The position numbers and the translations under genes are program-made. A DNA stretch of 64,000 bases from Chrysomallon squamiferum (Eukaryota > Animalia > Mollusca). Below the pieces are notes generated by a model, which saw only the letters and a list, made by a program, of their open reading frames with translations, was not told where the DNA came from and did no database searches. This document shows, one piece after another, positions 36,417 to 64,000 of this stretch; within the stretch, counting starts at the first letter, position 1; every line of letters starts with the position of its first letter. Where the stretch lies: the NCBI GenBank assembly GCA_012295275.1, contig CM022677.1:5394001-5458000 (forward strand). Direction: 5' to 3'.

Positions 36417-36454
<38 letters not shown>

Positions 36455-39502: not shown

Positions 39503-40220
39503 GGGTAAGGTGGGGTAATTCTGGCCCACACATTCATGAGTAATTTGGTCCTCAAATTTGTTGTACTGATTATTGCTATATAATCATTGTTTACTACTAA
39601 TAATAATTAGTCCTAATCATAATACAAGTCAAATTCAAAACTTCAATAAACTAAACTCCTTGACAAATATCACACAAGAATACAATATCTTTAAAGTCTG
39701 CACCAGCTGCGATTTCGAAATTTGCGCAAGAATCAAGACAATACCAATTTGGGCACCCGTCACTTCCTATCAGCTAGTCAGGAATTCGTTCCATCATCAA
39801 CTCTGCCACAGAGTTCACATTTTTCTTCTGTATCTACTACATCTCTGTCTTCTAGTTCAGGCTCATCACCATCAGCGTTTTCTTTGACTGCATCCACCGG
39901 TTCTGCTGTAGCATTCAAATTGAACTGCCGTTTTGACTTTGGTATCTTCAATTTTTGTTGCTGTAATGTTGCCTCTAAAACATTTCATTTCTTTGCCTTT
40001 TCTTCCACCTTTTTCTTCTTCTCTGCCAACTCTTCTTCATTCCTCTTGACACTTTCTTCCTCTGTCAGTGCCTCGGCAGACCTCATCCTTTTGATTTTAT
40101 TTGAAGTTTGACAACGTGCCCCCCGATGGACCGTGGACTTTCAACTGTTTCAAAAAACTTAAATAAAACTCTACATCAATGCCAAAACTATTGATTGCAC
40201 CACCAAATATGGGGGCCAAG
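39503..40220 (-). mobile_element. Internally deleted pogo-like DNA transposon retaining the transposase C-terminus (K/E-rich region plus PHD-like finger)
   Basis: TA plus TIR gggtaaggtggggtaattctggccc at 39503. The minus strand 40111-39655 reads ..SAEALTEEESVKRNEEELAEKKKKVEEKAKK*..CELCGRVDD../..IGSDGCPNWYCLDSC..FLCDICQGV* (frameshifted). Joined to subterminal sequence of the opposite end shared with 20061-20106. No DDE core is visible. Confidence 0.6.
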
Positions 40221-40827
40221 AAGTGTCTATAATATTTTCCGTTAAAGAGCACATTAAATCACAAAACCTATAATACTTAATTATCACATAATATCTGGTA
40301 AAATAAAATAATCCATCTGATTAGAGTAATCCGGAGAGTGAGAGAGAGAGAGAGTAAGAAAGCCAGAGGGAGATATTTATATGTCATAAGTACATACACT
40401 TCTGTTGGCCTGTCTGTCTTTCTGTATATAGAAAGGGCTTTCAAATTAATGGCACTGTATTCGAGATTAGAAAAATACTCTATGTATCCATCTGTTCATC
40501 TATCTTCAGTAACTATCTCTGTATGTAGTATTTCTATTTATCTATCATAAATCTATCTATCTGTCTATATATCTACCCAATTAATATAATATTAATGTAC
40601 TAATTAGCCATTCCCTTTGGAAATGTTGCCACACATACACCACGGTGATGTTCAATACACGTAGGGGATGTTAGTAATGGTTAGTATTTGTTAAATGTTA
40701 AAATTTGTTGACGGTTAGTATTTGGTTAACAGTTAGTTTTTAGTTAATGGCTAATATTTGGTTAGTGGTTAGAATTTTGTCAATGGTTTGTTAAATGTTA
40801 GTATTTGGTTAATGGTTACTCGGTCTA

Positions 40828-40922
<95 letters not shown>

Positions 40923-41243
40923 TCTCTAACTCGCTCTCTTCTCTCAACACAAAATTAACAATTTTACGCTCTAGAAATCATTATATCTGTGAAATTTAAA
41001 TAACGTGTCGGTATGAAAAGGCTGAAAAACAGTATTTACATGTATTTGAAATCATAATAAATAAAATATAGAAATTTTCACGTATTAAAACGGAATTTCG
41101 TAACAAATTTAAATTCTTGACCTTATTTTTACTCTGAATAGCATGAATGAAAAAATATTAAGATTTTAATAAAGAAAGATTTTAAATATGTGAAATAAAT
41201 TAAGAATGCACAAATAGAGATACTACTACTACCACTACTACAA

Positions 41244-41327
<84 letters not shown>

Positions 41328-42481
41328 GTAATATATATATATAATGTATATATAAAAGTCCTGACGTATCACCGATAGTGGGAGGAGTTTACTCCGCCAA
41401 GTAAAAATTGCATCGATTAGAGTTATTTCCCTTTAGTGATATGTGTTCACAAACATACTTTAGACATATGTCCCTTACGTGAGATGTACTCACTAAGCAA
41501 ACTAAAAATTACATCGATTATAGTTATCTCCCTTTAGTGATATGTGTTCACAAACAGGGATGAGAGTTATGTCTCTTACGTGAAACATTTAATAATAATT
41601 TGTATTATCTAATAAAATCTGTGTCATGTCTCTGACTCCCCCCACACACACGCAGAACATGTGACTGTCCTCAGTAACGAACTGCCTCTGTTACCCTGCA
41701 GTAGCAACTGAGCCAAAAGTACTTGAACGAAATCTCAAACAGTTTGAGGAGAGTTTTCAGAAACAGTTTCTGACTTACTTTCCAGAACAACTGCAGAGAG
41801 GGGTAGGTTACGAGGATTACGATGCTGATGAGCGTCTTACAGGAGCAGCAATTACATCTTGTGATGTTGTCTCTCATCAGCTGTCATATTCACATCCCGC
41901 TCTGTCTCAATACAAGGACAACAAGTAAATGGAAGGAGAGAAGTGATCACTCGATCAACATTCTCACTTACGTTTTACAAAACTGATTCTCATTATCGGG
42001 GAGATGTTTAGGAAGATGTATTCCTGTGTTTCGGCTATTACAGTGGGGTCTATGCTATATGTCGCTTGTGTTACATGTAGAGGATCTGTAGTGCTATATC
42101 TTTTTAATCCAATATCTGTGGACGTTTTTCGCCAGGTCACCAAATGTGACCAAAGTGATTACTCGTGCAAAAAAAAACAACAGCCACACGTTAATGCTAA
42201 AGTGAAGCCAGCTAACATTTCCAACCTTAACGTTATAGAGTTATCGGTTGGTTAACAAAACAGTTTATCACAGGCGATAACTCTATTAACAAAAGTTTGC
42301 TATTGTTTTTCCTTATTAATTCAAGTATTAGTTCGCTAAAGTGAAGACAACGAACAAATCTAGCGAACTCTTACAAAGTCAGGTTGAAGAATTATCGGTT
42401 GGTTAACGGAACAAGTTATCATGGGAGATAACTCTGTAACCTTGTATTTGCTATGTTTTTCCTTTTCAATTCCAGTAGGGT

Positions 42482-43150
42482 TACTATCCTGTCAGTAACT
42501 CTGTTTGTTCAAGGCATTGCCTTGTGCCTAGTATATTACAGACTGTGTTATGTCCTACCCTGTCACTGAGTCTCTTTCTTCAAAGCAATGCATCGTGTCT
42601 AATATATTACAGACTGTGGTATGTACTATCCTGTGACTGAGTATTTTTGTTCAAGGCAGTGCACTGTATCTAGTATTACAGACTGTGGTATGTACTACCC
42701 TGTCAGTGTCTGTTCAAGGCAGTGCATCGTGTGTACTATATTACAGACTGTGGTATGTACTATCCTGTCAGTGACTCTGTTTGTTCAAGGCAGTGCATTG
42801 TGTCTAGTATATTAGAGACTCTGGTATGTACTACCCTGTCAGTGAGTCTGTTTGTTCAAGGCAGTGTGTAGTGCCTAGTATATTATAGACTCTGGTATGT
42901 ACTACCCTGTCACTGAGTCTGTTTCTTCAAGTCAGTGGAAGGTGTCTACTATATTACAGACTGTGGTATGTACTATCCACTCAGTGACTATTTGTTCAAG
43001 GCAGTGCCTCGTGCCTAGTATATAACAGGCAGTGGTATGTACTATCGTGTGAGTGAGTATTTTTGTTCAAGGCAGTGCACTGTATCTAGTATTACAGACT
43101 GTGGTATGTACTACCCTGTCAGTGTGTCTGTTCAAGGTAATGCATCGTGT
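42482..43150. repeat. Minisatellite, ~71-bp unit, ~9.5 copies (duplicate at 55410-56079)
   Basis: Unit tactatcctgtcagtgactctgtttgttcaaggcagtgcattgtgtctagtatattacagactgtggtatg, with starts at 42482, 42553 and onward. Confidence 0.95.
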
Positions 43151-43709
43151 TTAGAAATTATTTTCTTGCCAAACAATATTTTTCATGCTTCTTAAATACT
43201 CATCATAAATATGCAGCTCTTTCTCCCTTTAATTATCATTCCCCAATTGATAATCCATATGTTTCACCATAAATACTATGACAATCTATATCTCAACATC
43301 TCTCTAACATAAGTCAGTTTCCCAAATAAGTTGCCCAATTGAGTTTTAATTTCATTGAGTCCTTGACCTATCCAGTGGGTTCTTTAAATGTCTCAGTTAT
43401 CATTTTCTTGAAGAAGCCATTTAAGAAGCCATTCTCTAATTGAACCATTCAAAGGGTAATCCCTTCTCTTTTATGTCCTCAGACTTATCCCTTTATCTTA
43501 ACTACAGATCTATCCCTTTATCTTATCTTCAGATCTATCCCCTTATCTTATCTTCAGATCTATCCCTGTATATGGCTTCCCAGATGGCTTCCCACTTAAC
43601 CCATGCTATGAATATAAAAGCTCTGAGGGAGCACCATTCCTGAGACTCATTAGTGCCATCGTTAGAATACACATCACAAACATATCAATAAAATTACGAT
43701 GAAGTCATG

Positions 43710-44328
43710 CCACATGTATACAAAGTTAGCTACTAGGATGAACAAGATTTGGTGGAAGTACTCCAAGAAAGTCAGTCTTGGTATGTATAAGGGTGGATAC
43801 ACTGTAGATGATTTTATTTATATTTTAAATTTCTGAAATGCAATGATGTGTTAATGAATTCGATTTAATTGGAAGGGCTGGAAAATCTTGTATATTTCTT
43901 CAGATCACAGTAAAAAAGCATAGGATGGGTCTAAGGTTTGAATATCAATATTTCCGAATGACTTCATATTCTGGTATTAATTAGTGTTATATTATGTCTT
44001 TGTAGGTTGTGTGGCTACACTCGGCACTACGGCAGATATGACTGAACCCGGTCGTCCATTCACCTGATGACACCGAGATCTCATACACCAAGTGTTGCAG
44101 TTCCATGTGCGAAATCACTGGAAAAGTCATCACAGATCTTCACTTAAGTCACAGCTGAGCTCGGACCACATGTGCAGGCCGCCTTATCAATCGAGAACAC
44201 TAAGCGCTGTTTACTCAAGCAACACAGGACTCCTCCAGTACCACAGCATCTCTCTGAGTTCATAGCTACCAGATGAGTGGCAGAAGACCGTTGGCCATTA
44301 TCCAGAGCCATTCCTACTCTACGACAAT
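43710..44328 (+). mobile_element. Mutator-like (FLYWCH + MULE) transposase remnant with one intron (duplicate at ~56640-57257)
   Basis: Exon to 43780 HMYTKLATRMNKIWWKYSKKVSL|G, GT-AG intron 43781-44005, then CVATLGTTADMTEP..HSPDDTEISYTK (FLYWCH-like) and TPPVPQHLSEF/LPDEWQKTVGHYPEPFLLYDN (recalled pre-catalytic MULE motif). Frameshifted and truncated. Confidence 0.6.
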
Positions 44329-46422
44329 TACTTTGCACATTATCGTAACATTGATAATAAAATTTAAATAACCTTCATCCTAACCCTAACCATAACATTC
44401 CTTAAACGTAACCCTAACGAAGGAAATGAACTTAATTCTGATGCTAACACCATTTCTAACTGTGCTCTCAGCTTGAACTTACAGTGGCCTTCAAATGCAT
44501 GGCCACAACGCCTAAATATATCATATCTTATTTTCCAAGCGTTCGATTATATGATTTTTTTATTTTATTTTATTTATTATCATTTTTAATTCTGTCTCTT
44601 GTTCCTTTATTGTTTCGTTCTTTTCATTCTAATTATATTTGTTTTGTTTAATGCTATCATAGTTCATAATTTCTATAATAGTTGTAGCTTTCTTTTACAT
44701 TTTCTTTTTGCATGTTTACTCGTTTATTCCTTTCATTTTCTCATCCGTGTTCCACATCCCGCATTGTAATATTACTCTGTAGGGGAAGTGTACGTATACT
44801 CATCCTGTGACAGAGCCTCTGATTGTTTGAAAGGTGTTTAGCCACAGCTGTGTGATACCTCGATCGACATCATGATTGTTATATTAAAGACAGCGGAAAT
44901 CAGCTGACGCGAAAAAAACAAAACAAAGAATAAATCTTATTTCAGCCAAGTCAATTTAATTTTTTTGCTATTTTTTGTATTTGTGTAGTGGTATATAGAT
45001 GCATATGTAGGATATATTATATATTTCTAGGTTAGGACGCAGTCTCGGCATATGGGGATGGAGGAAATTCGCCTACCGAAAAATTAGATGAGGTAAAACA
45101 AATGTGTTCCTTTCGGTTCTGTTTCTTAGTAATTTGGTTCATAGAAATGGCTAGACTAGTCTCGATAAACCACGATTTTTTGAATATATTTACCTCTGAA
45201 TGTTTTTTTCTTTTACTTCATCTTTTTATTATTATTATTACTTTAAAGAACATTTTTAACTTTAAAGAAAAATGAGATGAGTGAAATATTAAAACAATTT
45301 CAAATATTTCAAGATATATATTCTAATTATTAAAGGTATTATGTGCATTGTCATTTTGTTTGAATTACCTCAAGTTTCAGGCTTTATATAACACTTATAA
45401 TTATTCATCAAAACTAGAAAAAATAAATGCTCTGAAAATTATCTATGAGGAAATTTGTGTTTCCCGTCATGACACTTTTTGCTACGGTATAGTTACCACA
45501 TTCCTTCATAAAACGTGTTAAATGCAAAAGCAAAAATATGATGCTATATAGATGTTGTTGAATAAAACATTCATTCCTTCTTTTTCTCATTAAAAAATAC
45601 TATACTTATTATAAACAATAATAGGTTAAAATGTATATAGTAAATTATTATTACTGTTATTGTTGTGTTATTATTGCTATTTTTACTATTAATATATAGT
45701 ACTACTATTATTACTACTATTACTACTACTACTATTGTTGTTATTAAGGTTATTAATATTATTGATATTAATTTTTATCATCGTCATGATTAAAATTGAT
45801 AAAAATAATTGAAATATCAACAAAAGATAATAAGCAGAAAAAATGTGTTTGTCTGTCAAATGTAGATTGATAAAAAAAAATCATGTTTTTATTAAAATTA
45901 GTAAACTTTATACTTACTACTAATGTTAAATATTTTCAGTAGATCACTTCAGTATCATTGAGGTGCTGCCTAGAAAGGTAACTTACATCAAGGATGAATC
46001 AGCTGTTAGAGAAACCATTCTCATGCATTCTGAGTTGTGAGTTTATTTTATTTTGTGTCTTAGAGACAATTCTTAATTCACAGTAAAACAGTAATAATAA
46101 TCAGTCATTTGCTGTTATGTTAATTTTATTATTATTATTAGTATTAACATTATCATTATAATGCTTTACTTGGTGCCATGGGGATTCCCCTAAGTTGTAA
46201 ATGTGTATCTGTCTCGGGCAGGTACTACCCGAGTTGACTTGCTCTAGTGGTCAGTATGGGATCTATATATGCTATATAATTATAAATACCGTATCACTAG
46301 AACAGAACAAACACAAGCAAGTTTAAAAACTGTATTCACATAACATTGAACATTCACTAGTAAAGCATTATTTTTTTTCAATAACAAGAGTTAGGTTGAA
46401 ATCTATCAGGTCATTTTATTCT

Positions 46423-46551
46423 TCACCCCCCACCAATTTCAGCAATAGCTGGTACTGTAGAATCTATTATAGCTGATGTCGTTAATTCAACAGATGTATC
46501 AAAAGCAAATTCTATTATTTCAGTAGATATAATTCCCAAAGCTGTAAACAT
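46423..46551 (-). pseudogene. Truncated ORF1 of mini-unit C (copy 1)
   Basis: MFTALGIISTEIIEFAFDTSVELTTSAIIDSTVPAIAEI(GGG*) is paralogous to ORF1 of units A and B and runs into the inverted terminal sequence. Confidence 0.75.
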
Positions 46552-47274
46552 CCTAACACATCATCAACAAACAGAAAAATGAAAAATATATACATATAGT
46601 TATATTATATATTATATATCACGTGATATTACGGATATGACGTCATACTCTTCAAAATTAAAAATATGGTGGGGGGGTGAAGAATAAAATGACCTGATAG
46701 ATTTCAACCTAACTCTTGTTAATGTAAAAAAAAACAAAGTTCCTCATGATCTGGCTTTTGGGCTTTTTGGCCATAATGTACTTTTACACTTTTACACTAA
46801 AGCTAGAAAGCCAGCTAATAGTGGAACTTTGTTTTTTTAACAGTAAACAAGAGTTTAGTTGAAATCTATCACGTCTTGATTTTAACACCCACCTTTTTAT
46901 TTTGAAGAGTATGACGTCACATATTAATATTTATTTAATATATTGACGTTATTGTAAATAATAATATGATTATGACGATATGACGTCATTAATTTAATTT
47001 ATTATGTTATTAATATATTGACGTCATTATACCTAATATGTTAATATGACGTCATTATTTTAATATGACAGACGATAAGTAATATTTCGTTATTAATATT
47101 AAATAATAAATAACCACAAACAATTAATAACGTTATATATTTATTGATTTAATGATTACATTTTAACAATTAATAATCATTTTTAATATTATATTTTATT
47201 TATTTAAACATTTATATAAACTTCATAACATTAATAACTTAATTATAGTTTTTAAGTAACGTTTGTATTTCAGT

Positions 47275-47877
47275 TCAATTGTCTGATTTATGCTTGTTAA
47301 AAGATTCAATCTGAGTTTCCAAGATAGTTTGCGTAAACATATCAAGGAAGGGTTGGGTTTCCGGTATGTAATATTTGAATCTTTTTGCTTCAGGATCTTC
47401 CGGTTCTCTTCCCACTGTAATGAAGTGTGGATCAATTTCATCATCTGAATTATCATCACGTTTGCGCTTTAATCCTTGTGATTGAGAACATTTATCTTTT
47501 TGAGATTGCTGTCTTTTAATGAATAGGTCCTGAGATGGATTATATTTCTCGACTTCATCATTGTTATCTTCATCACTTGATATGATAACATAATCTATCT
47601 TATCTGAGGTTGCTCCACTGATCATTGGATCATCATTTAGAATAGGATGTTGTGTTCCCAAAACAGATCGACTATCGTCAAAATTGTCTCGAAAGTAACT
47701 GTTTCTGCCTTCAAACGTATTATCATCAATGTTATTATTGTGTTTGTTAAAAAAATATTCTCGATCGTTCTCTAATGCAATATTAATCTCATCGTCAGTA
47801 GGTTCATATCCAACGGTGAACATCTTGGGATGTATGAGATTATATGCATTGTTAAGAGTTTCGCTCTTTTTGAGATT
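47275..47877 (-). CDS. Unit A downstream ORF (acidic, NLS-like GLKRKR), probably 5'-truncated; function unknown (copy 1)
   Basis: 182-aa track ORF. The frame stays open ~18 codons upstream of the ATG (NLKKSETLNNAYNLIHPK) up to the deletion junction with the capsid-like gene. AATAAA follows on the minus strand. Confidence 0.6.
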   Translation of the reverse strand, partial: NLKKSETLNNAYNLIHPKMFTVGYEPTDDEINIALENDREYFFNKHNNNIDDNTFEGRNSYFRDNFDDSRSVLGTQHPILNDDPMISGATSDKIDYVIISSDEDNNDEVEKYNPSQDLFIKRQQSQKDKCSQSQGLKRKRDDNSDDEIDPHFITVGREPEDPEAKRFKYYIPETQPFLDMFTQTILETQIESFNKHKSDN

Positions 47878-48724
47878 TTGATTTTATATCCGACAAATTC
47901 GTCTGGTAAATTCCAGTCATCTGGCTTAGTACTTGCTTGTTTATACCAATAAGGTATTATATGTCCTCCATGATTAAAGGTTAATTTACATACATTAGGA
48001 TCACCTATAGCTTTTTTCCAATTAGTATTTTCAGTACCATTATCTAATATAGTCATTGTAGCTTTTCTACTCTTATTAAAATTAATAACAACTAGTAAAT
48101 GTTCGTTTAAATGTCTTTTTGATCGTTATATATTTAGGATTAGATCCTTTAGTAGTTCCACCAAATCCTTGATATAATACGTTGTTACCCTGTAGCAGAT
48201 GCCATTGGAGCACCTTCTACTGCTTCACTACCTCCTGTATCGGTGACTTCTTCATTCATTATTGAATCTGGTTCCATGACTGATTCATCCGATTGTAGAT
48301 ATGTTCCTTTATAATTAGATCTTTCTAATACATCTTGAGATATAGTATTAGATAATTGATTATTATTAGGAATTTTAGTACTTGATCCACCTTGTGGTTC
48401 ATCTGTCTGTCTCTTCATGGGTTTACTAGACGACATATTGTTATCTAAAGTGGTTTCCTCTGTATATAAAGGCGAATCGAAATATTCTTCCTCGTTCGAA
48501 TCTTCAAAAACGTTATTATTTTCCCGAATATCTTGTATCGCTTGATAGAAACGTTGAGTTGGTATTTGTAAATTCGGATATTGACGTCGTAACTGTATCC
48601 ACCTATCTTGACGTTGATTAACCGGCACATTTAATTCAGCTAACCTAGAGAATGTCTTAGATTTAGCTATAGCCCAAAGTCTGGTAACTTCTTTCTTGTT
48701 GAGCAGACGTTTACCTCTATTCAT
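47877..48724 (-). pseudogene. Unit A capsid (VP)-like gene, frameshifted and truncated (copy 1)
   Basis: Same as 60805-61651, plus an extra C at ~48189 giving an early stop. Confidence 0.75.
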
Positions 48725-49078
48725 GAAATTGGAATGTTTCTATATACGTAATTGACGTAGTCGTCTTCTTCTTGTTCTAGTTCCTCACGTTCTGATTTAG
48801 ATAATTTATTATCTAAATCTTTACCATCTGAATTAATAAATTCACTAAATTGATTGACAGCTTCTTGTATCTGATTTTTCGTAAATGTAGAAATACCTTC
48901 TATCGATGATTCTACGACAGATTGTCCAATAGCTGTAGCTGGTTCCAAATATATACTGTCAGCTCCCAATATTTCGGTAATAGCAGGTACAGTAGATTCT
49001 ATTATAGCAGATGTAGCTATTTCAACTGAAGCATCAAACGCGTATTCAATAAGCTCAATAACCTAAAGCTGTAAACAT
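48721..49078 (-). pseudogene. Unit A ORF1 (acidic, ~118 codons, 1-nt offset after MFTALG) (copy 1)
   Basis: MFTALG / IELIEYAFDASVEIATSAIIESTVPAITEILGADSIYLEP..YVYRNIPIS*. Its stop overlaps the VP-like ATG (ATGA). Confidence 0.65.
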
Positions 49079-49191
49079 CCCATCACAACGATAGATTGAT
49101 CGTAAATAATCAATAAATTATATATATATATATATATATAATATTTATAACGTATATGACGTCACATATCTTCAAAATAAAAATCAAGACG

Positions 49192-49440
49192 TGATAGATT
49201 TCAACAAACTCTTGTTTACTGTTAAAAAAACAAAGTTCCACTATTAGCTGGCTTTCTAGCTTTTGGCTTTTTGACCATAATGCGCTTTTAACCCGAAGGT
49301 GATAACGTTCCTTCGGGCGAAGCCTGAACCCACGGATCAGATGTTAAAAGTACATTATGGTCAAAAGCCGTAGAAAGCTAAGTTAACAGGTGAACTTTTG
49401 TTTTTAACAGTAAAACAAGAGTTAGGTAGAAATCTATCAG
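49192..49440. repeat. Terminal palindrome, copy 1 (centre 49304-49335 in 'flip' orientation; right arm degenerate)
   Basis: Left arm ends ...aacccgaaggtgat, centre aacgttccttcgggcgaagcctgaacccacgg, right arm has indels. Confidence 0.85.
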
Positions 49441-49583
49441 GTCATGATTTTTCTTTTTGAAGATGTCTATATATGTCACGTGATATTGTCATGTGACATA
49501 TATGAACTATAATAATAGTATTGCGATTAATTATTACTTCAGTCGTCTCACCGTCGTTGTATGTGATAGATGTTCACAGCGTT

Positions 49584-49783: not shown

Positions 49784-50254
49784 ATGGTTCATAGTACAAA
49801 ATCTTAAAGGCATATGTCACTATAATTTAGTATTAGAATTCATTGTTAAAAAAGTGGTGTTTAGTTTTGTCTTAAAATGTTATTGTAATTATATTTCCTA
49901 TTTAACAAACTTCAGTTGGATTAGTAACATCATGCAGAGTGATTTTGACTGCTCAAAATTTATATGAAAATTTCATTGTTTTTGTTCAAGGGACAAATCG
50001 AAAAAACAGTTTTTAGCAAAATAGAATTTTACAATAATTAATTAAGTGTAATAATAACTCAAATAAACAAACAAATAATGGAAATTGGGTCTTTATAAAC
50101 TTTTGGAGTAAATATATGTTACTATTGAAATATTTTGTGATAAATCATTTTAAAGAATTAGCAAAATTCATCTAAATGTAGCAAATCAAATTTAGCTTGA
50201 CACTGCTAAGGGATATAACTTTAACGTGTTTGTAAATATACAAAAAAGACTGAG

Positions 50255-50321
<67 letters not shown>

Positions 50322-50324
50322 GAA

Positions 50325-50362
<38 letters not shown>

Positions 50363-51146: not shown

Positions 51147-51185
<39 letters not shown>

Positions 51186-51475
51186 GTAATAATAATAAAT
51201 GTTTAAAATTTTACAAGTGTGGGATTTATTATTTGAATTATTATTATTACTTAAGTATTCTAAAATTCCTATTTCGCTTAAAATGTTTTAGTTTTACGAT
51301 TTGCCCCTTGAATAAAAAGAAATATTCATTGTTTATAATAATAATAATAAATCAAATAAACCAAAAAATAATGGAAACTGGTTGATTAGAAAATGAATTT
51401 AATATTGGAATAGTTTGCAATGTTATATCTATTAATGGTCTAAGGGAAACAACTCTATTTAATGGGTTTGTAAAT

Positions 51476-51545
<70 letters not shown>

Positions 51546-52787: not shown

Positions 52788-53764
52788 TTTGACTGCATCC
52801 ACTGGTTCTGCTGTAGCATTCAAATTGAACTGCCGTTTTGACTTTGGTATCTTCTATTTTTGTTGTTGTAATGTTGCCTCTAAAACCTTTCATTTCTTTG
52901 CCTTTTCTTCCACCTTTTTCTTCTTCTCTGCCAACTCTTCTTCATACCTCTTGACACTTTCTTCTTCTGTCAATGCCTCGGCAGACCTCATCCTCTTGAT
53001 TTTATTTGAAGTTTGACCACGTGCCCGCCACCCACAGATGGACCGTAGACTTTCAACTGTTTCAAAAACCTTAAATAAAACTCAGAATAGACTACATCAA
53101 TGCCAACACTATTGATTGCACCACCAAATATGGGGGCCAAGAAGTGTCTATAATAGTTTCAGTTAAAGAGCACATTAAATCACAAAACCTATAATACTTA
53201 ATTATCACATAATATCTGGTAAAATAAAATAATCCATCTGATTAGAGTAACCCGGAGAGTGAGAGAGAGAGAGTAAGAAAGCCTAAGGGAGATATTTATA
53301 TGTCATAAGTACATACACTTCTGTTGGCCTGTCTGTCTTTCTGTATATAGAAAGGGCTTTCAAATTAATGGCACTGTATTCGAAATCAGAAAACAGTAGC
53401 AATACCCTATGTATCCATCTGTTCATCTATCTTCAGTAACTATCTCTGTATGTAGTATTTCTATTTATCTATCATAAATCTATCTATCTGTCTATATATC
53501 TACCCAATTAATATAATATTAATGTACTAATTAGCCATTCCCTTTGGAAATGTTGCCACACATACACCACGGTGATGTTCAGTACACGTAGGGGATGTTA
53601 GTAATGGTTAGTATTTGTTAAATGTTAGTATTTGTTGACGGTTAGTATTTGGTTAACAGTTAGTTTTTAGTTAATGGCTAATATTTGGTTAGTGGTTAGA
53701 ATTTTGTCAATGGTTTGTTAAATGTTAGTATTTGGTTAATGGTTACTCGCTTTCTCTCTGTCTA

Positions 53765-53859
<95 letters not shown>

Positions 53860-54195
53860 TCCATCTCTCTAACTCGCTCTCTTCTCTCAACACAAAATTA
53901 ACAATTTTACGCTCTAGAAATCATTATATCTGTGAAATTTAAATAACGTGTCGGTATGAAAAGGCTGAAAAACAGTATTTACATGTATTTGAAATCATAA
54001 TAAATAAAATATAGAAATGTTCACGTATTAAAACGGAATTTCGTAACAAATATAAATTCTTGACCTTATTTTTACTCTGAATAGCATGAATGAAAAAATA
54101 TTAAGATTTTAATAAAGAAAGATTTTAAATATGTGAAATAAATTAAGAATGCACAAATAGAGATACTACTACTACCACTACTACAACTACCACTT

Positions 54196-54234
<39 letters not shown>

Positions 54235-57200
54235 ATAATAATAATAATAATAATAATAATAGTAATATATATATATAATGTATATATAAAAAGTCCTGAC
54301 GTATCACCGATAGTGGGAGGAGTTTACTCCGCCAAGTAAAAATTGCATCGATTAGAGTTATTTCCCTTTAGTGATATGTGTTCACAAACATACTTTAGAC
54401 ATATGTCCCTTACATGAGATGTACTCACTAAGCAAACTAAAAATTACATCGATTATAGTTATCTCCCTTTAGTGATATGTGTTCACAAACAGGGATGAGA
54501 GTTATGTCTCTTACGTGAAACATTTAATAATAATTTGTATTATCTAATAAAATCTGTGTCATGTCTCTGACTCCCCCCACACACACGCAGAACATGTGAC
54601 TGTCCTCAGTAACGAACTGCCTCTGTTACCCTGCAGTAGCAACTGAGCCAAAAGTACTTGAACGAAATCTCAAACAGTTTGAGGAGAGTTTTCAGAAACA
54701 GACTTACTTTCCAGAACAACTGCAGAGAGGGGTAGGTTACGAGGATTACGATGCTGATGAGCGTCTTACAGGAGCAGCATTTACATCTTGTGATAATGTC
54801 TCTCATCAGCTGTCATATTCACATCCCGCTCTGTCTCAATACAAGGACAACAAGTAAATGGAAGGAGAGAAGTGATCACTCGATCAACATTCTCACTTAC
54901 GTTTTACAAAACTGATTCTCATTATCGGGGAGATGTTTAGGAAGATGTATTCCTGTGTTTCGGCTATTACAGTGGGGTCTATGCTATATGTCGCTTGTGT
55001 TACATGTAGAGGATCTGTAGTGCTATATCTTTTTAATCCAATATCTGTGGACATTTTTCGCCAGGTCAGCAAATGTGACCAAAGTGATTACTCGTGCAAA
55101 AAAAACAACAGCCACACGTTAATGCTAAAGTGAAGCCAGCTAACATTTCCAACCTTAACGTTATAGAGTTATCGGTTGGTTAACAAAACAGTTTATCACA
55201 GGCGATAACTCTATTAACAAAAGTTTGCTATTGTTTTTCCTTATTAATTCAAGTATTAGTTCGCTAAAGTGAAGCCAACGAACAAATCTAGCGAACTCTT
55301 ACAAAGTCAGGTTGAAGAATTATCGGTTGGTTAACGGAACAAGTTATCATGGGAGATAACTCTGTAACCTTGTATTTGCTATGTTTTTCCTTTTCAATTC
55401 CAGTAGGGTTACTATCCTGTCAGTGACTCTGTTTGTTCAAGGCATTGCCTTGTGCCTAGTATATTACAGACTGTGTTATGTCCTACCCTGTCACTGAGTC
55501 TCTTTCTTCAAAGCAATGCATCGTGTCTAATATATTACAGACTGTGGTATGTACTATCCTGTGACTGAGTATTTTTTGTTCAAGGCAGTGCACTGTATCT
55601 AGTATTACAGACTGTGGTATGTACTACCCTGTCAGTGTCTGTTCAAGGCAGTGCATCGTGTGTACTATATTACAGACTGTGGTATGTACTATCCTGTCAG
55701 TGACTCTGTTTGTTCAAGGCAGTGCATTGTGTCTAGTATATTAGAGAGTCTGGTATGTACTACCCTGTCAGTGAGTCTGTTTGTTCAAGGCAGTGTGTAG
55801 TGCCTAGTATATTATAGACTCTGGTATGTACTACCCTGTCACTGAGTCTGTTTCTTCAAGTCAGTGGAAGGTGTCTACTATATTACAGACTGTGGTATGT
55901 ACTATCCACTCAGTGACTATTTGTTCAAGGCAGTGCCTCGTGCCTAGTATATAACAGGCAGTGGTATGTACTATCGTGTGAGTGAGTATTTTTGTTCAAG
56001 GCAGTGCACTGTATCTAGTATTACAGACTGTGGTATGTACTACCCTGTCAGTGTGTCTGTTCAAGGTAATGCATCGTGTTTAGAAATTATTTTCTTGCCA
56101 AACAATATTTTTCATGCTTCTTAAATACTCATCATAAATATGCAGCTCTTTCTCCCTTTAATTATCATTCCCCAATTGATAATCCATATGTTTCACCATA
56201 AATACTATGACAATCTATATCTCAACATCTCTCTAACATAAGTCAGTTTCCCAAATAAGTTGCCCAATTGAGTTTTAATTTCATTGAGTCCTTGACCTAT
56301 CCAGTGGGTTCTTTAAATGTCTCAGTTATCATTTTCTTGAAGAAGCCATTTAAGAAGCCATTCTCTAATTGAACCATTCAAAGGGTAATCCCTTCTCTTT
56401 ATGTCCTCAGACTTATCCCTTTATCTTAACTACAGATCTATCCCTTTATCTTATCTTCAGATTTATCCCCTTATCTTATCTTCAGATCTATCCCTGTATA
56501 TGGCTTCCCAGATGGCTTCCCCCACTTAACCCATGCTATGAATATAAAAGCTCTGAGGGAGCACCATTCCTGAGACTCATTAGTGCCATCGTTAGAATAC
56601 ACATCACAAACATATCAATAAAATTACGATGAAGTCATGCCACATGTATACAAAGTTAGCTACTAGGATGAACAAGATTTGGTGGAAGTACTCCAAGAAA
56701 GTCAGTCTTGGTATGTATAAGGGTGGATACACTGTAGATGATTTTATTTATATTTTAAATTTCTGAAATGCAATGATGTGTTAATGAATTCGATTTAATT
56801 GGAAGGGCTGGAAAATCTTGTATATTTCTTCAGATCACAGTAAAAAAGCATAGGATGGGTCTAAGGTTTGAATATCAATATTTCCGAATGACTTCATATT
56901 CTGGTATTAATTAATGTTATATTATGTCTTTGTAGGTTGTGTGCTACACTCGGCACTACGGCAGATATGACTGAACCCGGTCGTCCATTCACCTGATGAC
57001 ACCGAGATCTCATACACCAAGTGTTGCAGTTCCATGTGCGAAATCACTGGAAAAGTCATCACAGATCTTCACTTAAGTCACAGCTGAGCTCGGACCACAT
57101 GTGCAGGCCGCCTTATCAATCGAGAACACTAAGCGCTGTTTACTCAAGCAACACAGGACTCCTCCAGTACCACAGCATCTCTCTGAGTTCATAGCTACCA

Positions 57201-59349
57201 GATGAGTGGCAGAAGACCGTTGGCCATTATCCAGAGCCATTCCTACTCTACGACAATTACTTTGCACATTATCGTAACATTGATAATAAAATTTAAATAA
57301 CCTTCATCCTAACCCTAACCATAACATTCCTTAAACGTAACCCTAACGAAGGAAATGAACTTAATTCTGATGCTAACACCATTTCTAACTGTGCTCTCAG
57401 CTTGAACTTACAGTGGCCTTCAAATGCATGGCCACAACGCCTAAATATATCATATCTTATTTTCCAAGCGTTCGATTATATGATTTTTTTTTATTTTATT
57501 TTATTTATTATCATTTTTAATTCTGTCTCTTGTTCCTTTATTGTTTCGTTCTTTTCATTCTAATTATATTTGTTTTGTTTAATGCTATCATAGTTCATAA
57601 TTTCTATAATAGTTGTAGCTTTCTTTTACATTTTCTTTTGCATGTTTACTCGTTTATTCCTTTCATTTTCTCATCCGTGTTCCACATCCCGCATTGTAAT
57701 ATTACTCTGTAGGGGAAGTGTACGTATACTCATCCTGTGACAGAGCCTCTGATTGTTTGAAAGGTGTTTAGCCACAGCTGTGTGATACCTCGATCGACAT
57801 CATGATTGTTATATTAAAGACAGCGGAAATCAGCTGACGCGAAAAAAACAAAACAAAGAATAAATCTTATTTCAGCCAAGTCAATTTAATTTTTTTGCTA
57901 TTTTTTGTATTTGTGTAGTGGTATATAGATGCATATGTAGGATATATTATATATTTCTAGGTTAGGACGCAGTCTCGGCATATGGGGATGGAGGAAATTC
58001 GCCTACCGAAAAATTAGATGAGGTAAAACAAATGTGTTCCTTTCGGTTCTGTTTCTTAGTAATTTGGTTCATAGAAATGGCTAGACTAGTCTCGATAAAC
58101 CACGATTTTTTGAATATATTTACCTCTGAATGTTTTTTCTTTTACTTCATCTTTTTATTATTATTATTACTTTAAAGAACATTTTTAACTTTAAAGAAAA
58201 ATGAGATGAGTGAAATATTAAAACAATTTCAAATATTTCAAGATATATATTCTAATTATTAAAGGTATTATGTGCATTGTCATTTTGTTTGAATTACCTC
58301 AAGTTTCAGGCTTTATATAACACTTATAATTATTCATCAAAACTAGAAAAAATAAATGCTCTGAAAATTATCTATGAGGAAATTTGTGTTTCCCGTCATG
58401 ACACTTTTTTCTACAGTATAGTTACCACATTCCTTCATAAAACGTGTTAAATGCAAAAGCAAAAATATGATGCTATATAGATGTTGTTGAATAAAACATT
58501 CATTCCTTCTTTTTCTCATTAAAAAATACTATACTTATTATAAACAATAATAGGTTAAAATGTATATAGTAAATTATTATTACTGTTATTGTTGTGTTAT
58601 TATTGCTATTTTTACTATTAATATATATTACTACTATTATTACTACTATTACTACTACTACTATTGTTATTAAGGTTATTAATATTATTGATATTAATTT
58701 TTATCATCGTCATGATTAAAATTGATAAAAATAATTGAAATATCAACAAAAGATAATAAGCAGAAAAAATGTGTTTGTCTGTCAAATGTAGATTGATAAA
58801 AAAAAATCATGTTTTTATTAAAATTAGTAAACTTTATACTTACTACTAATGTTAAATATTTTCAGTAGATCACTTCAGTATCATTGAGGTGCTGCCTAGA
58901 AAGGTAACTTACATCAAGGATGAATCAGCTGTTAGAGAAACCATTCTCATGCATTCTGAGTTGTGAGTTTATTTTATTTTGTGTCTTAGAGACAATTCTT
59001 AATTCACAGTAAAACAGTAATAATAATCAGTCATTTGCTGTTATGTTAATTTTTATTATTATTATTAGTATTAACATTATCATTATAATGCTTTCCTTGG
59101 TGCCATGGGGATTCCCCTAAGTTGTAAATGTGTGTCTGTCTCGGGCAGGTACTACCCGAGTTGACTTGCTCTAGTGGTCAGTATGGGATCTATATATGCT
59201 ATATAATTATAAATACCGTATCACTAGAACAGAACAAACACAAGCAAGTTTAAAAACTGTATTCACATAACATTGAACATTCACTAGTAAAGCATTATTT
59301 TTTTACAATAACAAGAGTTAGGTTGAAATCTATCAGGTCATTTTATTCT

Positions 59350-59478
59350 TCACCCCCCACCAATTTCAGCAATAGCTGGTACTGTAGAATCTATTATAGC
59401 TGATGTCGTTAATTCAACAGATGTATCAAAAGCAAATTCTATTATTTCAGTAGATATAATTCCCAAAGCTGTAAACAT
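59350..59478 (-). pseudogene. Truncated ORF1 of mini-unit C (copy 2)
   Basis: 42-aa reading MFTALGIISTEIIEFAFDTSVELTTSAIIDSTVPAIAEIGGG*. Confidence 0.75.
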
Positions 59479-59839
59479 CCTAACACATCATCAACAAACA
59501 GAAAAATGAAAAATATATACATATAGTTATATTATATATTATATATCACGTGATATTACGGATATGACGTCATACTCTTCAAAATTAAAAATATGGTGGG
59601 GGGGTGAAGAATAAAATGACCTGATAGATTTCAACCTAACTCTTGTTAATGTAAAAAAAAACAAAGTTCCTCATGATCTGGCTTTTGGGCTTTTTGGCCA
59701 TAATGTACTTTTACACTTTTACACCAAAGCTAGAAAGCCAGCTAATAGTGGAACTTTGTTTTTTTAACAGTAAACAAGAGTTTAGTTGAAATCTATCACG
59801 TCTTGATTTTAACACCCACCTTTTTTATTTTGAAGAGTA

Positions 59840-59982
59840 TGACGTCACATATTAATATTTATTTAATATATTGACGTTATTGTAAATAATAATATGATTA
59901 TGACGATATGACGTCATTAATTTAATTTATTATGTTATTAATATATTGACGTCATTATACTTAATATGTTAATATGACGTCA
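59840..59982. promoter_or_regulatory. Cluster of perfect CRE/ATF palindromes (TGACGTCA)
   Basis: TGACGTCA at 59840, 59909, 59947 and 59975, plus 59565 and 62076. Copy 1 has them at 46638, 46912, 46981, 47019, 47047 and 49157. Confidence 0.6.
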
Positions 59983-60202
59983 TTATTTTAATATGACAGA
60001 CGATAAGTAATATTTCGTTATTAATATTAAATAATAAATAACCACAAACAATTAATAACGTTATATATTTATTGATTTAATGATTACATTTTAACAATTA
60101 ATAATCATTTTTAATATTATATTTTATTTATTTAAACATTTATATAAACTTCATAACATTAATAACTTAATTATAGTTTTTAAGTAACGTTTGTATTTCA
60201 GT

Positions 60203-60805
60203 TCAATTGTCTGATTTATGCTTGTTAAAAGATTCAATCTGAGTTTCCAAGATAGTTTGCGTAAACATATCAAGGAAGGGTTGGGTTTCCGGTATGTAAT
60301 ATTTGAATCTTTTTGCTTCAGGAACTTCCGGTTCTCTTCCCACTGTAATGAAGTGTGGATCAATTTCATCATCTGAATTATCATCACGTTTGCGCTTTAA
60401 TCCTTGTGATTGAGAACATTTATCTTTTTGAGATTGCTGTCTTTTAATGAATAGGTCCTGAGATGGATTATATTTCTCGACTTCATCATTGTTATCTTCA
60501 TCACTTGATATGATAACATAATCTATCTTATCTGAGGTTGCTCCACTGATCATTGGATCATCATTTAGAATAGGATGTTGTGTTCCCAAAACAGATCGAC
60601 TATCGTCAAAATTGTCTCGAAAGTAACTGTTTCTGCCTTCAAACGTATTATCATCAATGTTATTATTGTGTTTGTTAAAAAAATATTCTCGATCGTTCTC
60701 TAATGCAATATTAATCTCATCGTCAGTAGGTTCATATCCAACGGTGAACATCTTGGGATGTATGAGATTATATGCATTGTTAAGAGTTTCGCTCTTTTTG
60801 AGATT
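60203..60805 (-). CDS. Unit A downstream ORF, probably 5'-truncated; function unknown (copy 2)
   Basis: 182-aa track ORF 60203-60751, frame open to ~60805. Minus-strand AATAAA at 60123-60128. Confidence 0.6.
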   Translation of the reverse strand, partial: NLKKSETLNNAYNLIHPKMFTVGYEPTDDEINIALENDREYFFNKHNNNIDDNTFEGRNSYFRDNFDDSRSVLGTQHPILNDDPMISGATSDKIDYVIISSDEDNNDEVEKYNPSQDLFIKRQQSQKDKCSQSQGLKRKRDDNSDDEIDPHFITVGREPEVPEAKRFKYYIPETQPFLDMFTQTILETQIESFNKHKSDN

Positions 60806-61651
60806 TTGATTTTATATCCGACAAATTCGTCTGGTAAATTCCAGTCATCTGGCTTAGTACTTGCTTGTTTATACCAATAAGGTATTATATGTCCTCCATG
60901 ATTAAAGGTTAATTTACATACATTAGGATCACCTATAGCTTTTTTCCAATTAGTATTTTCAGTACCATTATCTAATATAGTCATTGTAGCTTTTCTACTC
61001 TTATTAAAATTAATAACAACTAGTAAATGTTCGTTTAAATGTCTTTTTGATCGTTATATATTTAGGATTAGATCCTTTAGTAGTTCCACCAAATCCTTGA
61101 TATAATACGTTGTTACCTGTAGCAGATGCCATTGGAGCACCTTCTACTGCTTCACTACCTCCTGTATCGGTGACTTCTTCATTCATTATTGAATCTGGTT
61201 CCATGACTGATTCATCCGATTGTAGATATGTTCCTTTATAATTAGATCTTTCTAATACAGCTTGAGATATAGTATTAGATAATTGATTATTATTAGGAAT
61301 TTTAGTACTTGATCCACCTTGTGGTTCATCTGTCTGTCTCTTCATGGGTTTACTAGACGACATATTGTTATCTAAAGTGGTTTCCTCTGTATATAAAGGC
61401 GAATCGAAATATTCTTCCTCGTTCGAATCTTCAAAAACGTTATTATTTTCCCGAATATCTTGTATCGCTTGATAGAAACGTTGAGTTGGTATTTGTAAAT
61501 TCGGATATTGACGTCGTAACTGTATCCACCTATCTTGACGTTGATTAACCGGCACATTTAATTCAGCTAACCTAGAGAATGTCTTAGATTTAGCTATAGC
61601 CCAAAGTCTGGTAACTTCTTTCTTGTTGAGCAGACGTTTACCTCTATTCAT
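60805..61651 (-). pseudogene. Unit A capsid (VP)-like gene with a 1-nt insertion (~61019) and 3' deletion (copy 2)
   Basis: Track ORFs 61010-61651 and 60700-60984 join into one protein aligning with unit B VP up to ..DEFVGYKIK, after which similarity stops abruptly. Confidence 0.8.
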
Positions 61652-62005
61652 GAAATTGGAATGTTTCTATATACGTAATTGACGTAGTCGTCTTCTTCTT
61701 GTTCTAGTTCCTCACGTTCTGATTTAGATAATTTATTATCTAAATCTTTACCATCTGAATTAATAAATTCACTAAATTGATTGACAGCTTCTTGTATCTG
61801 ATTTTTAGTAAATGTAGAAATACCTTCTATCGATGATTCTACGACAGATTGTCCAATAGCTGTAGCTGGTTCCAAATATATACTGTCAGCTCCCAATATT
61901 TCGGTAATAGCAGGTACAGTAGATTCTATTATAGCAGATGTAGCTATTTCAACTGAAGCATCAAACGCGTACTCAATAAGCTCAATAACCTAAAGCTGTA
62001 AACAT
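61648..62005 (-). pseudogene. Unit A ORF1 (copy 2)
   Basis: ATG at 62005, 1-nt offset after MFTALG, then open to the TGA overlapping the VP-like ATG. Confidence 0.65.
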
Positions 62006-62111
62006 CCCATCACAACGATAGATTGATCGTAAATAATCAATAAATTATATATATATATAATATTTATAACGTATATGACGTCACATATCTTCAAAATAAA
62101 AAATCAAGACG

Positions 62112-62370
62112 TGATAGATTTCAACTAAACTCTTGTTTACTGTTAAAAAAACAAAGTTCCACTATTAGCTGGCTTTCTAGCTTTTGGCTTTTTGACCATA
62201 ATGCGCTTTTAACCCGAAGGTGATCCGTAGGGTTCAGGCTTCGCCCGAAGGAACGTTATCACCTTCGGGTTAAAAGTACATTATGGTCAAAAAGCCAAAA
62301 GCTAGAAAGCCAGCTAATAGTGGAACTTTGTTTTTTTAACAGTAAACAAGAGTTAGGTAGAAATCTATCA
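62112..62370. repeat. Terminal palindrome, copy 2: 113-bp arms (5 mismatches) around a 33-nt asymmetric GC-rich centre ('flop')
   Basis: Arms 62112-62224 and 62258-62370. Centre ccgtagggttcaggcttcgcccgaaggaacgtt with inner stems cttcg/cgaag and gttc/gaac. Confidence 0.95.
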
Positions 62371-62399
62371 GGTCATGATTTTTTCTTTGAAGAGATGTC

Positions 62400-62475
62400 T
62401 ATATATGTCACGTGATATTGTCATGTGACATATATAGACTATAATAATAGTATTGCGATTAATTATTACTTCAGT
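62400..62475 (+). promoter_or_regulatory. Putative promoter of unit B
   Basis: 16-bp inverted repeat with a CACGTG E-box (62400-62436), TATA-like tataata at 62440, TCAGT initiator-like motif at 62471, ATG at 62502. Confidence 0.45.
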
Positions 62476-62501
62476 CGTCTTCACGTCGTTGTATGTGATA
62501 G

Positions 62502-62846
62502 ATGTTCACAGCGTTAGGTATTGATCGAATACGCTTTCGATGCTTCTGGTGAACTTGCTACATCTGCTATAATAGATTCGACTGCACCAGCTATTACAGA
62601 AATAATAGGAGCTGACAGTTTGTTATTGGAACCAGCTACAGCTATAGGACAGAGTATAGTGGAGTCGTCTGTTGAAGGTATTTCTACATATACTAAAAAC
62701 AAGAGACATTAGATCAATTTGTCGACTTTGTTACACCGGATATAAAGGATATAGACGCTGACGTTTCTCCATCGGAACGACAGCAATTAGAGCAGGAAGA
62801 GGACGAATACGTAACTTACGTATATAGGAATAGTCCGGTTTCATGA
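62502..62846 (+). pseudogene. Unit B ORF1 (acidic; offset after MFTALG and a frameshifting deletion near 62700)
   Basis: MFTALG / LIEYAFDASGELATSAIIDSTAPAITEIIGADSLLLEPATAIGQSIVESSVEGISTYTKN / QETLDQFVDFVTPDIKDIDADVSPSERQQLEQEEDEYVTYVYRNSPVS*. Aligns with unit A ORF1 throughout. Confidence 0.75.
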
Positions 62847-64000
62847 ATAAAGGAAAACGTCTTCTGAATAAAAAGGAAGTGACGAGACTTTGGGCTATAG
62901 CTAAATCCAAAGCATTTTCGATATTATCGGATTTCAATGTCCCATTTGAAGAACGACAAACCAGGTGGCTACAGATCAGACGTCAGTATCCAAATCTACA
63001 AATTCCTAATCAAAATTTCTATCAGGCAATACAGAATCTTAGGGAGAACTATAACGCTGCTGAAGATTCGGACGAAGACGACCCTTTCAGCACCCCTTTA
63101 TACCCAGACGACGACATCAACAACAACCAACAACCAGCAGCAGGGAGAGATATTGAACGATCCGGAAATCAAGATACTAAACCAGCTATGAAACGACAAA
63201 CAAGCGAACCAGCCGGTGGAAGTAATTCTAAAGTTGCTAATAATAACAAGCAACTGTCTCACAGGATATCGCAAGATGTCATAGAACAGTCTAATTCTAA
63301 AGGAACCTATCTTCAGCCTAACGAATCGGTGATGGAACCCGATTCGATTATGAACGAAAAGGTAACAGATACAGGAGGAAGTGAGGCTGTCGAAGGTGCT
63401 CCGATCGCTTCGGCTACAGGTAATAATGTTTTGTACCAAGGATTTGGAGGATGTACTAAAGGAGCTGATCCCCGATATATAACGATAAAAAAGACATTTA
63501 AACGAACATTTACGAGTACCATTAATTTTACTAAAACCAGAAAGGCTATTATGAAAATATTAGATAATGATACGGATGATGTAAATTGGAAAAAAGCTAT
63601 AGGTGATCCTAATGTTTGTGAATTAACGTTTAATCACGGTGGTCATATTACACCCTATTGGTATAAACAGGCCAGCACCAGACCAGATGACTGGAATTTA
63701 CCCGATGATTTTGTTGGATATAAAATAAAACGATTTGGTTTCAATATAAACAATATGATTATACATGTATTAAATAATAATAAATCAGATCCGAATGAGG
63801 TACCAGTAATGGCACCTCCAAATTCACGTGTGTGGACGTTCACCGATATCTATAATGATTATGGTCCACCGGAGAAGAATTTAAACCTATCTCACAACCA
63901 TTATTTTAGAGATGAGGAATGTATGGATAGTACTAGTCTTAGGAGTATACCAGTTCAACCCGATCGTAAACTGTATCTGCCCAGTGACGTAGGAATGCAA
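62843..64000 (+). CDS. Unit B parvovirus-like capsid protein (VP), open to the window end (386 codons, 3'-partial)
   Basis: Manual translation shows no stop: MNKGKRLLNKKEVTRLWAIAKSKAFS..GGSEAVEGAPIASATGNNVLYQGFGG..YITIKKTFKRTFTSTINF..FNHGGHITPYWYKQASTRPDDWNLPDDFVGYKIKRFGFNINNMIIH..APPNSRVWTFTDIYNDYG.. A disordered N-terminus, Gly-rich linker and strand/helix pattern resemble hamaparvovirus-type jelly-roll capsids. No PLA2 motif seen. Confidence 0.75.
   Translation, partial: MNKGKRLLNKKEVTRLWAIAKSKAFSILSDFNVPFEERQTRWLQIRRQYPNLQIPNQNFYQAIQNLRENYNAAEDSDEDDPFSTPLYPDDDINNNQQPAAGRDIERSGNQDTKPAMKRQTSEPAGGSNSKVANNNKQLSHRISQDVIEQSNSKGTYLQPNESVMEPDSIMNEKVTDTGGSEAVEGAPIASATGNNVLYQGFGGCTKGADPRYITIKKTFKRTFTSTINFTKTRKAIMKILDNDTDDVNWKKAIGDPNVCELTFNHGGHITPYWYKQASTRPDDWNLPDDFVGYKIKRFGFNINNMIIHVLNNNKSDPNEVPVMAPPNSRVWTFTDIYNDYGPPEKNLNLSHNHYFRDEECMDSTSLRSIPVQPDRKLYLPSDVGMQ

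Follow-up and report, generated by a model that had tools for sequence, protein, structure and literature searches.

The window analysed here, 64,000 nucleotides of the Chrysomallon squamiferum genome (assembly GCA_012295275.1, contig CM022677.1), carries at its right-hand end a chain of three related units of parvovirus-type sequence, which we call C, A and B. The chain begins at position 59298 and runs to the end of the window, its units joined end to end at related terminal repeats, as an earlier interpretation made from the letters of this DNA (the sequence-only reading) had proposed. Around it the window is animal-type DNA, AT-rich at about 30% G+C, with many microsatellites and two N gaps. 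Unit C (59298-~59713) is delimited by its inverted ends and by the translation of a piece of a first open reading frame (ORF), ORF1, on the minus strand. Unit A (~59726-62224), delimited by a matching end pair and by its alignment to B, has its genes on the minus strand. Unit B starts at 62258, has its genes on the plus strand and continues beyond 64000, so that its far end lies outside the window.

Gene content, lesions and selection

In unit B, ORF1 (62518..62846, plus strand, recognised by alignment and in read contigs) is followed by a long ORF (62843..64000, plus strand) that is open at the window end and comprises the first 386 codons of a capsid (VP) gene, assigned by homology to a protein, P0003, described below. 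Unit A repeats this order on the minus strand, with an ORF1 of 113 codons (61648..61989; translation and alignment to B) and the 5' part only of the capsid gene (60805..61651), and A and B can be aligned through ORF1 and ~296 codons from the start of the long ORF. In both units the stop of ORF1 and the start of the capsid gene overlap in ATGA. Unit C has just 42 codons of ORF1 between its two ends, a 5' piece running into the terminal repeat (59350..59478, minus strand). Over a homologous 80-nt block of this first ORF, C matches A and B at 63/80 positions each and A matches B at 67/80. In A and B an in-frame stop lies upstream of ORF1 and the closest ATG is in another frame, whereas in C that ATG is in the frame of ORF1. 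This start arrangement in A and B may reflect either splicing into ORF1 or shared damage.

The capsid gene of unit A has a frameshift near 61019 and stops at a deletion junction at 60805, where it joins a third frame on the same strand, ORF3 (60203..60811, minus strand), which lost its own 5' end in the deletion. ORF1 of unit B is frameshifted near 62700, and contigs without substitutions span it in three of the read runs introduced below (X1, X2 and X3). C and A are incomplete units, internally deleted between matching ends.

The ORF3 remnant consists of 202 stop-free codons, a frame that 0 of 5000 base shuffles reproduced, and its product would be acidic and Asn-rich with basic clusters. ORF3 matched neither P0003 nor any Pfam family, nor, on weak evidence, any longer protein; proteins near its own length lay outside the search. 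Beyond it, unit A has an AT-rich non-coding end (59839..60200) with clustered TGACGTCA/ACGT motifs, which may be CRE-type sites; TGACGTCA occurs four times in 59726-60200 and not once in host positions 1-39000. We considered an ambisense layout of unit A and rejected it. There is no plus-strand frame of more than 60 codons in 59810-60811 and ORF3 points to the far terminus, so the far end of A is the 3' end of a gene and not the start of an ambisense NS cassette.

The sequence-only reading held that the units had diverged under purifying selection as viruses, citing eight synonymous and no replacement changes between A and B in VP codons 4-17. We reproduced this count, and the ratio of non-synonymous to synonymous substitution rates (dN/dS) agrees with the claim. 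Over 211 VP codons dN is 0.18 and dS is 1.14; dN/dS is 0.076 in the conserved part of VP, 0.085 in a second stretch (66 codons) and 0.22 in ORF1 (64 codons). Ratios of 0.08-0.22 suggest that the genes of A and B diverged as working genes, before they acquired their present lesions.

No NS1 was seen in the chain: the six frames of 59298-64000 contain neither a Walker A nor an HUH pattern, A and C being deleted and B leaving the window. The ORFs of the element within the window include no PolB of the kind found in Bidnaviridae or Vesanto-like viruses, and a long terminal hairpin is present.

Identity of the long ORF

Pfam gave nothing above cut-off for the window ORFs or P0003, and PDB sequence searches with B, with its relative P0001 and with two alignments returned no real match. 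Word-based protein searches found only P0001 and P0002. P0003, a full-length protein of 690 aa from the cluster of P0001, shares 50.5% identity with B across 386 columns. Searching 1.84 billion representatives with a profile extended the family to 56 relatives, 31 of them at E <1e-30. Of 20 relatives looked up, the only one with a name (P0026) is the GenBank protein QKE54994.1, labelled Parvoviridae sp., which is 31% identical to the window capsid over 199 columns. One of the 31 long relatives scanned, P0047, contains the PLA2-like domain PF08398 (E 4.5e-11) directly before the conserved N-terminal helix, which is the position occupied by ORF1 in the chain. Neither ORF1 nor VP in the window has a PLA2 domain by Pfam or motif scan. 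A PLA2 domain in the VP1-unique region is common in Parvoviridae but not universal.

A first AlphaFold model of the capsid, built from 8 close rows, reached a pLDDT of 27, had no Foldseek match and was discarded. A model of P0003 from 46 rows reached 63.5, with strands at residues 188-205, 265-285, 304-309 and 564-582. Compared with the PDB, 45 of the 45 matches listed were parvoviral capsid entries (best E 1.9e-9). In BFVD an ambidensovirus VP came first (E 6e-14), accompanied by other parvoviral VPs, and in VIA the top 20 rows were parvoviral capsids (Z 9.4-14.7), the next row falling to Z 5.6. TM-scores were low (0.22-0.33 of the query), so the model assigns the fold and not the genus. Through this 50%-identical homologue the long ORF is identified as the gene of a parvovirus capsid protein with a single jelly-roll fold, and the label of QKE54994.1 and the PLA2-like domain of P0047 point the same way, as the sequence-only reading had supposed for its capsid-like gene.

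In a quick tree of 33 rows, B, P0002 and P0003 group together (support 100), on a long branch. The relatives P0017-P0088 form a family of 540-980-aa parvoviral capsid proteins with a conserved N-terminal three-helix domain and no Pfam capsid match, encoded on Logan contigs of at most 7.4 kb, and are a candidate undescribed group of large-genome parvoviruses. None of the loci of the capsid relatives was found in IMG/VR, the JGI metagenomes or the phage collection.

Terminal repeats and junctions

The A-B junction is a palindrome of 295 nt (62094..62388), with arms at 62094-62224 and 62258-62388 and a loop at 62225-62257, and carries an A-type inner repeat on its left side and a B-type one on its right. 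It folds at -138 kcal/mol (z -32), with 0/100 shuffles equally good, and by fold and alignment it is a head-to-head bridge made of one complete terminal palindrome. The sequence-only reading had stressed that the hairpin arms differ at only 5 of 113 positions. The count is correct, with just 2 of the differences within the first 97 positions; these 97 are the two arms of a single palindrome, so their likeness does not prove that two genomes had identical ends.

Unit C abuts host DNA with a left end (59298..59366, plus strand) consisting of an inner terminal repeat without a hairpin stem, which forms an inverted repeat with 59589-59659. Its right terminal repeat (59589..59713, minus strand) has its own stem variant, which differs from the A stem in an alignment of the five ends, and makes up the left half of the C-A junction. 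There a C-type stem is paired with an A-type stem and the loop is missing (-55.6 kcal/mol, z -8.8). The far-end terminal repeat of unit A (59726..59850, plus strand), comprising a stem arm, the inner repeat and the first TGACGTCA, is complementary to 62100-62184 at 85/85 positions. Within C and within A, the two ends agree at all of their inner 36 nt (36/36 each), whereas between units the agreement is 29-32/36. Since end pairs match within units and differ between them, each unit represents a genome type of its own, bounded by its own version of the inverted terminal repeat (ITR), and the junctions are hybrids. The terminal sequence family on which the sequence-only reading built is real as a set of related ends, and these ends are unit-specific. 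Genes flanked by palindromic hairpin termini, as in Parvoviridae, are seen here in the hairpin, the matching end pairs of C and A and the two orientations of the loop. Identical corresponding termini across units, as in Acheta domesticus segmented densovirus (AdSDV), are not seen among C, A and B.

The hairpin loop at 62225-62257 is flip/flop-like, lying in the opposite orientation in a second copy of the element (about 49300-49340, see below), and an opposite-strand joint at 62221-62269 occurs in read runs X1 and X2. A true inversion could account for the reversed loop of the second copy, as could an artefact of assembly. A search of IMG/VR with the terminal motif gave six matches, none of them related to the element.

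Deleted genomes or capsid segments

We think it probable that the chain consists of internally deleted pieces of three related parvovirus-type genomes, which were fused at their termini as co-infecting defective genomes and integrated into the germ line. This interpretation builds on the capsid gene, the hairpin ends, the end-retaining deletions and the hybrid junctions described above, and on the host junction and the many diverged copies in the same organism described below. The divergence of A and B, with a dS of about 1.1 and dN/dS of 0.08-0.16, and the unit-specific end pairs speak for separate viruses. The interpretation corresponds to the second option of the sequence-only reading, co-infecting relatives ligated through related termini. 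The option which that reading had put first, a multipartite or satellite-like system, does not hold up as the leading explanation for units that look like deletion derivatives with unit-specific termini.

Spelled out, under the first option the units would be the capsid-only segments of a divided parvovirus or satellites that depend on a helper, in either case lacking NS1 from the start, with A derived from a ~4 kb segment of ORF1, capsid gene and ORF3. The units do start with ORF1 and the capsid gene, and NS1 is visible in none of them. The far end of A is the 3' end of a same-strand gene, the vp segment of AdSDV is described as having an extra ORF too (PMC10267136), and the minimum parent of A would measure about 3.7 kb (2,499 nt and the capsid codons that were lost). 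Two capsid genes of the close clade share one 8.4-kb contig, and Vesanto virus is an example of homologous segments with similar ITRs (PMC8363768). However, corresponding termini are reported to be identical in AdSDV, whereas the inner repeats of the chain differ between units and the stem of C is not that of A. C and A are also visibly deleted, so the absence of NS1 from them is expected. The sequence-only reading took the capsid-first order as a sign that Rep would lie further downstream or be supplied in trans. This order is, however, published for monopartite genomes, MT138329 (7,244 nt) and MT138334 (7,497 nt), which are described as carrying their structural ORF upstream of NS, together with one more ORF (PMC9001828), so it does not imply Rep in trans. 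Among 19 clusters of relatives with known contig size, 13 reach 6.0-7.4 kb, six of these, P0023, P0027, P0031, P0034, P0036 and P0039, at 7.18-7.39 kb, close to the sizes of MT138329 and MT138334, and none is longer. Such sizes fit whole monopartite genomes and not 3.3-kb capsid segments. If the parent of A measured ~7 kb, its deletion would be near 5 kb and would leave room for NS1. On balance we regard capsid-only segments as a distinctly unlikely source of the units, and as evidence for a new multipartite virus the chain is weak.

Second copy and host junction

A second copy of the host flank, C, A, the hairpin and the start of B, missed by the sequence-only reading, lies at 39878..49583 (plus strand; element part 46371-49583) and is 98% identical to 52783-62515. 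It shares the host junction, here at 46371, and both capsid lesions of unit A, and it ends noisily at an N gap. It may be the other allele or a local duplicate. Substitutions between the copies amount to 0.22% in the flank (57001-59297), 0.24% in C and 0.26% in A, rates similar enough to indicate that, after the two copies diverged, the element evolved in the manner of host DNA. This 9.7-kb direct duplicate is adjoined by an inverted one (34115-36920 against 49786-52785, 92-93% identical) around the N gap at 49584-49783, and the duplicates around this gap are likely to be two uncollapsed haplotypes differing by an inversion and a deletion. Both copies of the direct duplicate contain a tandem array of about 10 copies of ~71-nt units (55410-56083 and 42482-43154, both on the plus strand).

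Seven sequencing runs from three studies of one organism contain the sequence, with 65-90% of sampled words in each; no RNA run is listed among them. For four of the runs (X1-X4), contigs were aligned to 62075-64000. In all four, contigs near-identical to B are present at flat depth (about 90-113, 25-33, 92-132 and 10-11 in X1-X4) and extend 0.8-1.0 kb beyond the window end. Host-flank letters form a loose end in two contigs of X1, which gives the host-C junction; no listed contig bridges A-specific to B-specific sequence. The host-C junction, for which the sequence-only reading had wanted long reads, appears in these run contigs, and the A-B junction in the two assembled copies.

Long palindromes and a many-copy family invite mis-joins, the uncollapsed duplicate beside the N gap has a noisy end, and the A-B bridge is spanned by no listed contig. 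These features would suit an assembly chimera in which episomal viral DNAs were joined at repeats and attached to host sequence. Such a chimera is nevertheless very improbable in our view, because the two copies, 0.2-0.3% apart, share all junctions and lesions, the host junction is present in X1 contigs, and B with its frameshift is near-identical in runs of two studies. A 923-nt contig of X4, moreover, stops matching B exactly at the deletion position of A (its remaining letters were not seen). The element is an endogenous parvoviral element, joined to host DNA at its left junction (the right one being beyond the window), heritable and lesioned, and the integration that the sequence-only reading assumed is real. 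The family was seen as integrated DNA and as assembled contigs; Parvoviridae package a linear ssDNA genome in T=1 particles.

Related copies in the same organism

The four runs contain 128, 107, 151 and 86 related contigs, of which 99, 92, 118 and 69, respectively, are less than 99% alike. Of the joints shown across the runs, 14/15 are skip joints (internal deletions), and several hairpin variants occur. One deletion variant, with the same substitutions throughout, has depths of 175, 0, 1041 and 17 in X1-X4, where B itself has about 90, 26, 99 and 10, and a second has depths of 301, 0, 1176 and 0; these are raw contig depths, not copy numbers. These data point to many copies, differing between samples. 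Close relatives also cluster in another assembly, where contigs of 297, 61, 8.4 and 452 kb bear 5, 3, 3 and 2 capsid pieces, respectively (equal size being taken as one contig). Its capsid genes of the close clade, P0001-P0014, some intact and some broken, lie in clusters on ENA contigs of 8.4-560 kb, and two identical intact 690-aa capsid copies lie on ENA contigs of different size.

Abundance of this kind raises the prospect of a germ-line-mobile family, in which hairpin-ended derivatives lacking NS1 would be replicated in trans, by a helper either resident or infecting, and reinserted like non-autonomous transposons. The 86-151 mostly diverged contigs per run, deletion variants whose depths differ from those of B, the several capsid pieces per large contig in the other assembly and the opposite loop orientation of the two copies would all be compatible with it. 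However, depth does not measure copy number, tandem duplication, collapsed repeats or episomal defective DNA of a current infection would look alike, and the chain locus itself changes like its flank. We therefore rate a mobile family as unlikely, while noting that it and a concatemer of defective genomes can both be true. A stronger version, likewise unlikely, is a resident self-amplifying parvoviral germ-line family whose NS1-less units, whether deleted genomes or true capsid segments, are copied in trans, swap and fuse their ends across diverged relatives and reinsert, with a copy number differing about tenfold between individuals.

Other features of the window

Two intronless sequences lie elsewhere in the window. 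A frame of 280 codons at 14949-15791 (plus strand) has basic 35-aa repeats, a C3HC4 RING domain (PF00097, E 9e-8) and a hydrophobic C-terminus, and may be a retrocopy or a virus-like RING protein. At 22943-23785 (plus strand) a prolyl 4-hydroxylase-like sequence (2OG-FeII_Oxy_3, E 1.2e-10) is interrupted by a stop and is likely a processed pseudogene.

Discussion

If the chain arose from defective genomes, its parents would have been separate monopartite viruses, likely of about 7 kb, with all visible genes on one strand and, from one terminus to the other, ORF1, the capsid gene, further genes with NS1 among them, and ORF3. During a persistent mixed infection, rolling-hairpin replication would have yielded deletion genomes that keep both ends, such as C and A, and the NS1 of a helper would have copied them. 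Helper-driven copying of deletion genomes is a general feature of parvoviruses. The related termini would then have recombined or been end-joined, leaving the loopless hybrid stem at C-A and the one-hairpin, head-to-head bridge at A-B. The chain would have integrated, gained its frameshifts and come to change at the rate of its flank, and the other copies could stem from repeated integration or from later duplication. Of these steps, we infer the mixed persistent infection, the helper-driven copying, the end fusion and the germ-line integration.

Published work offers precedents for several of them. Different adeno-associated virus (AAV) genomes join through their ITRs in all orientations (PMC5733846), densovirus DNA integrates in rearranged form (PMC5978394), and scrambled clusters of parvoviral endogenous viral elements (EVEs), derived from infectious hypodermal and haematopoietic necrosis virus (IHHNV-EVE), are described in shrimp (PMC9357335). 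Parvovirus-related sequences occur across invertebrate phyla (PMC5013282, PMC11357303, PMC9896142). Large parvovirus genomes of beetles with extra cassettes, and their EVEs, are described with NS1 before VP (PMC13426907).

Several points weigh against our interpretation. The motif scan of the chain saw no NS1. Identity to P0003 is only about 21-29% among the 6-7 kb relatives, which fall outside the clade of B, P0002 and P0003 in the quick tree, so their layout may not carry over, and QKE54994.1 is not tied to MT138329 or MT138334. Two capsid genes of the close clade occur together on an ENA contig of 8,418 nt, where NS1 would hardly fit unless the two stand head to head as in the chain. The capsid fold was computed for the homologue P0003 and not for B itself. 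Finally, the host junction is seen in X1 only, which may be the assembly's own sample, and the A-B junction rests on two assembled copies.

In the open literature searched we came across no account of diverged parvoviral EVEs joined through their ITRs into a natural chain. The same literature contained no mention of QKE54994, and MT138329 and MT138334 appeared only in their source paper (PMC9001828). The chain links unclassified large capsid-first parvoviruses, represented in this analysis only by metagenomic contigs and a single GenBank protein, with the germ line of an animal. It also preserves terminal hairpins, unlike metagenomic contigs and many endogenous elements. It is evidence from nature that one cell can host diverged parvoviruses which then fuse via their ends, a route to recombination and possibly to segmented genomes. 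Should germ-line amplification underlie the differences in depth, parvoviral DNA would be behaving as a mobile element, and a self-amplifying family would be a parvoviral counterpart of non-autonomous transposon families.

Comparison with known systems

Among described viruses, MT138329 and MT138334 and the family of QKE54994.1 resemble the chain in having an upstream structural ORF, an additional ORF and no assigned genus (PMC9001828). The capsid of the chain is homologous to QKE54994.1 and to the relatives on 6-7.4 kb contigs. MT138329 and MT138334 are, however, reported as exogenous metagenomic genomes, whereas the chain is endogenous and deleted, keeps whole hairpins and, in its unit B, belongs to its own clade with P0002 and P0003.

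AdSDV is similar in its terminal-repeat-bounded units, one with a capsid gene plus an extra ORF and no NS1 visible (PMC10267136). It is reported to have two intact 3.3-kb segments, heterotelomeric ends that are identical across segments and a 378-aa brevi-type VP, whereas the ends of the chain are homotelomeric and unit-specific, its capsid protein measures about 700 aa and its units are broken. Vesanto virus of Drosophila likewise has several ITR-bounded units with similar ends and homologous genes (PMC8363768). It is described as Bidna-like, PolB-encoding and exogenous; the chain gives no evidence of PolB and has a long hairpin of the self-priming type.

The IHHNV-EVE of Penaeus monodon are comparable as clustered, rearranged and heritable parvoviral pieces in an invertebrate-type genome (PMC9357335). 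These clusters are reported to be 99% identical to one virus type each and are described without hairpins (PMC11357303), whereas the three units of the chain differ by about 20-25% in DNA, meet specifically at terminal repeats and include a complete hairpin. The mode of joining resembles that reported for AAV vector concatemers (PMC5733846) and for the integration of Junonia coenia densovirus (PMC5978394), with different genomes joined via terminal repeats in mixed orientations and with deletions near NS genes upon integration. Those cases, as described, concern laboratory vectors and somatic or cultured cells, whereas the chain is natural and inherited and is made of diverged genomes.

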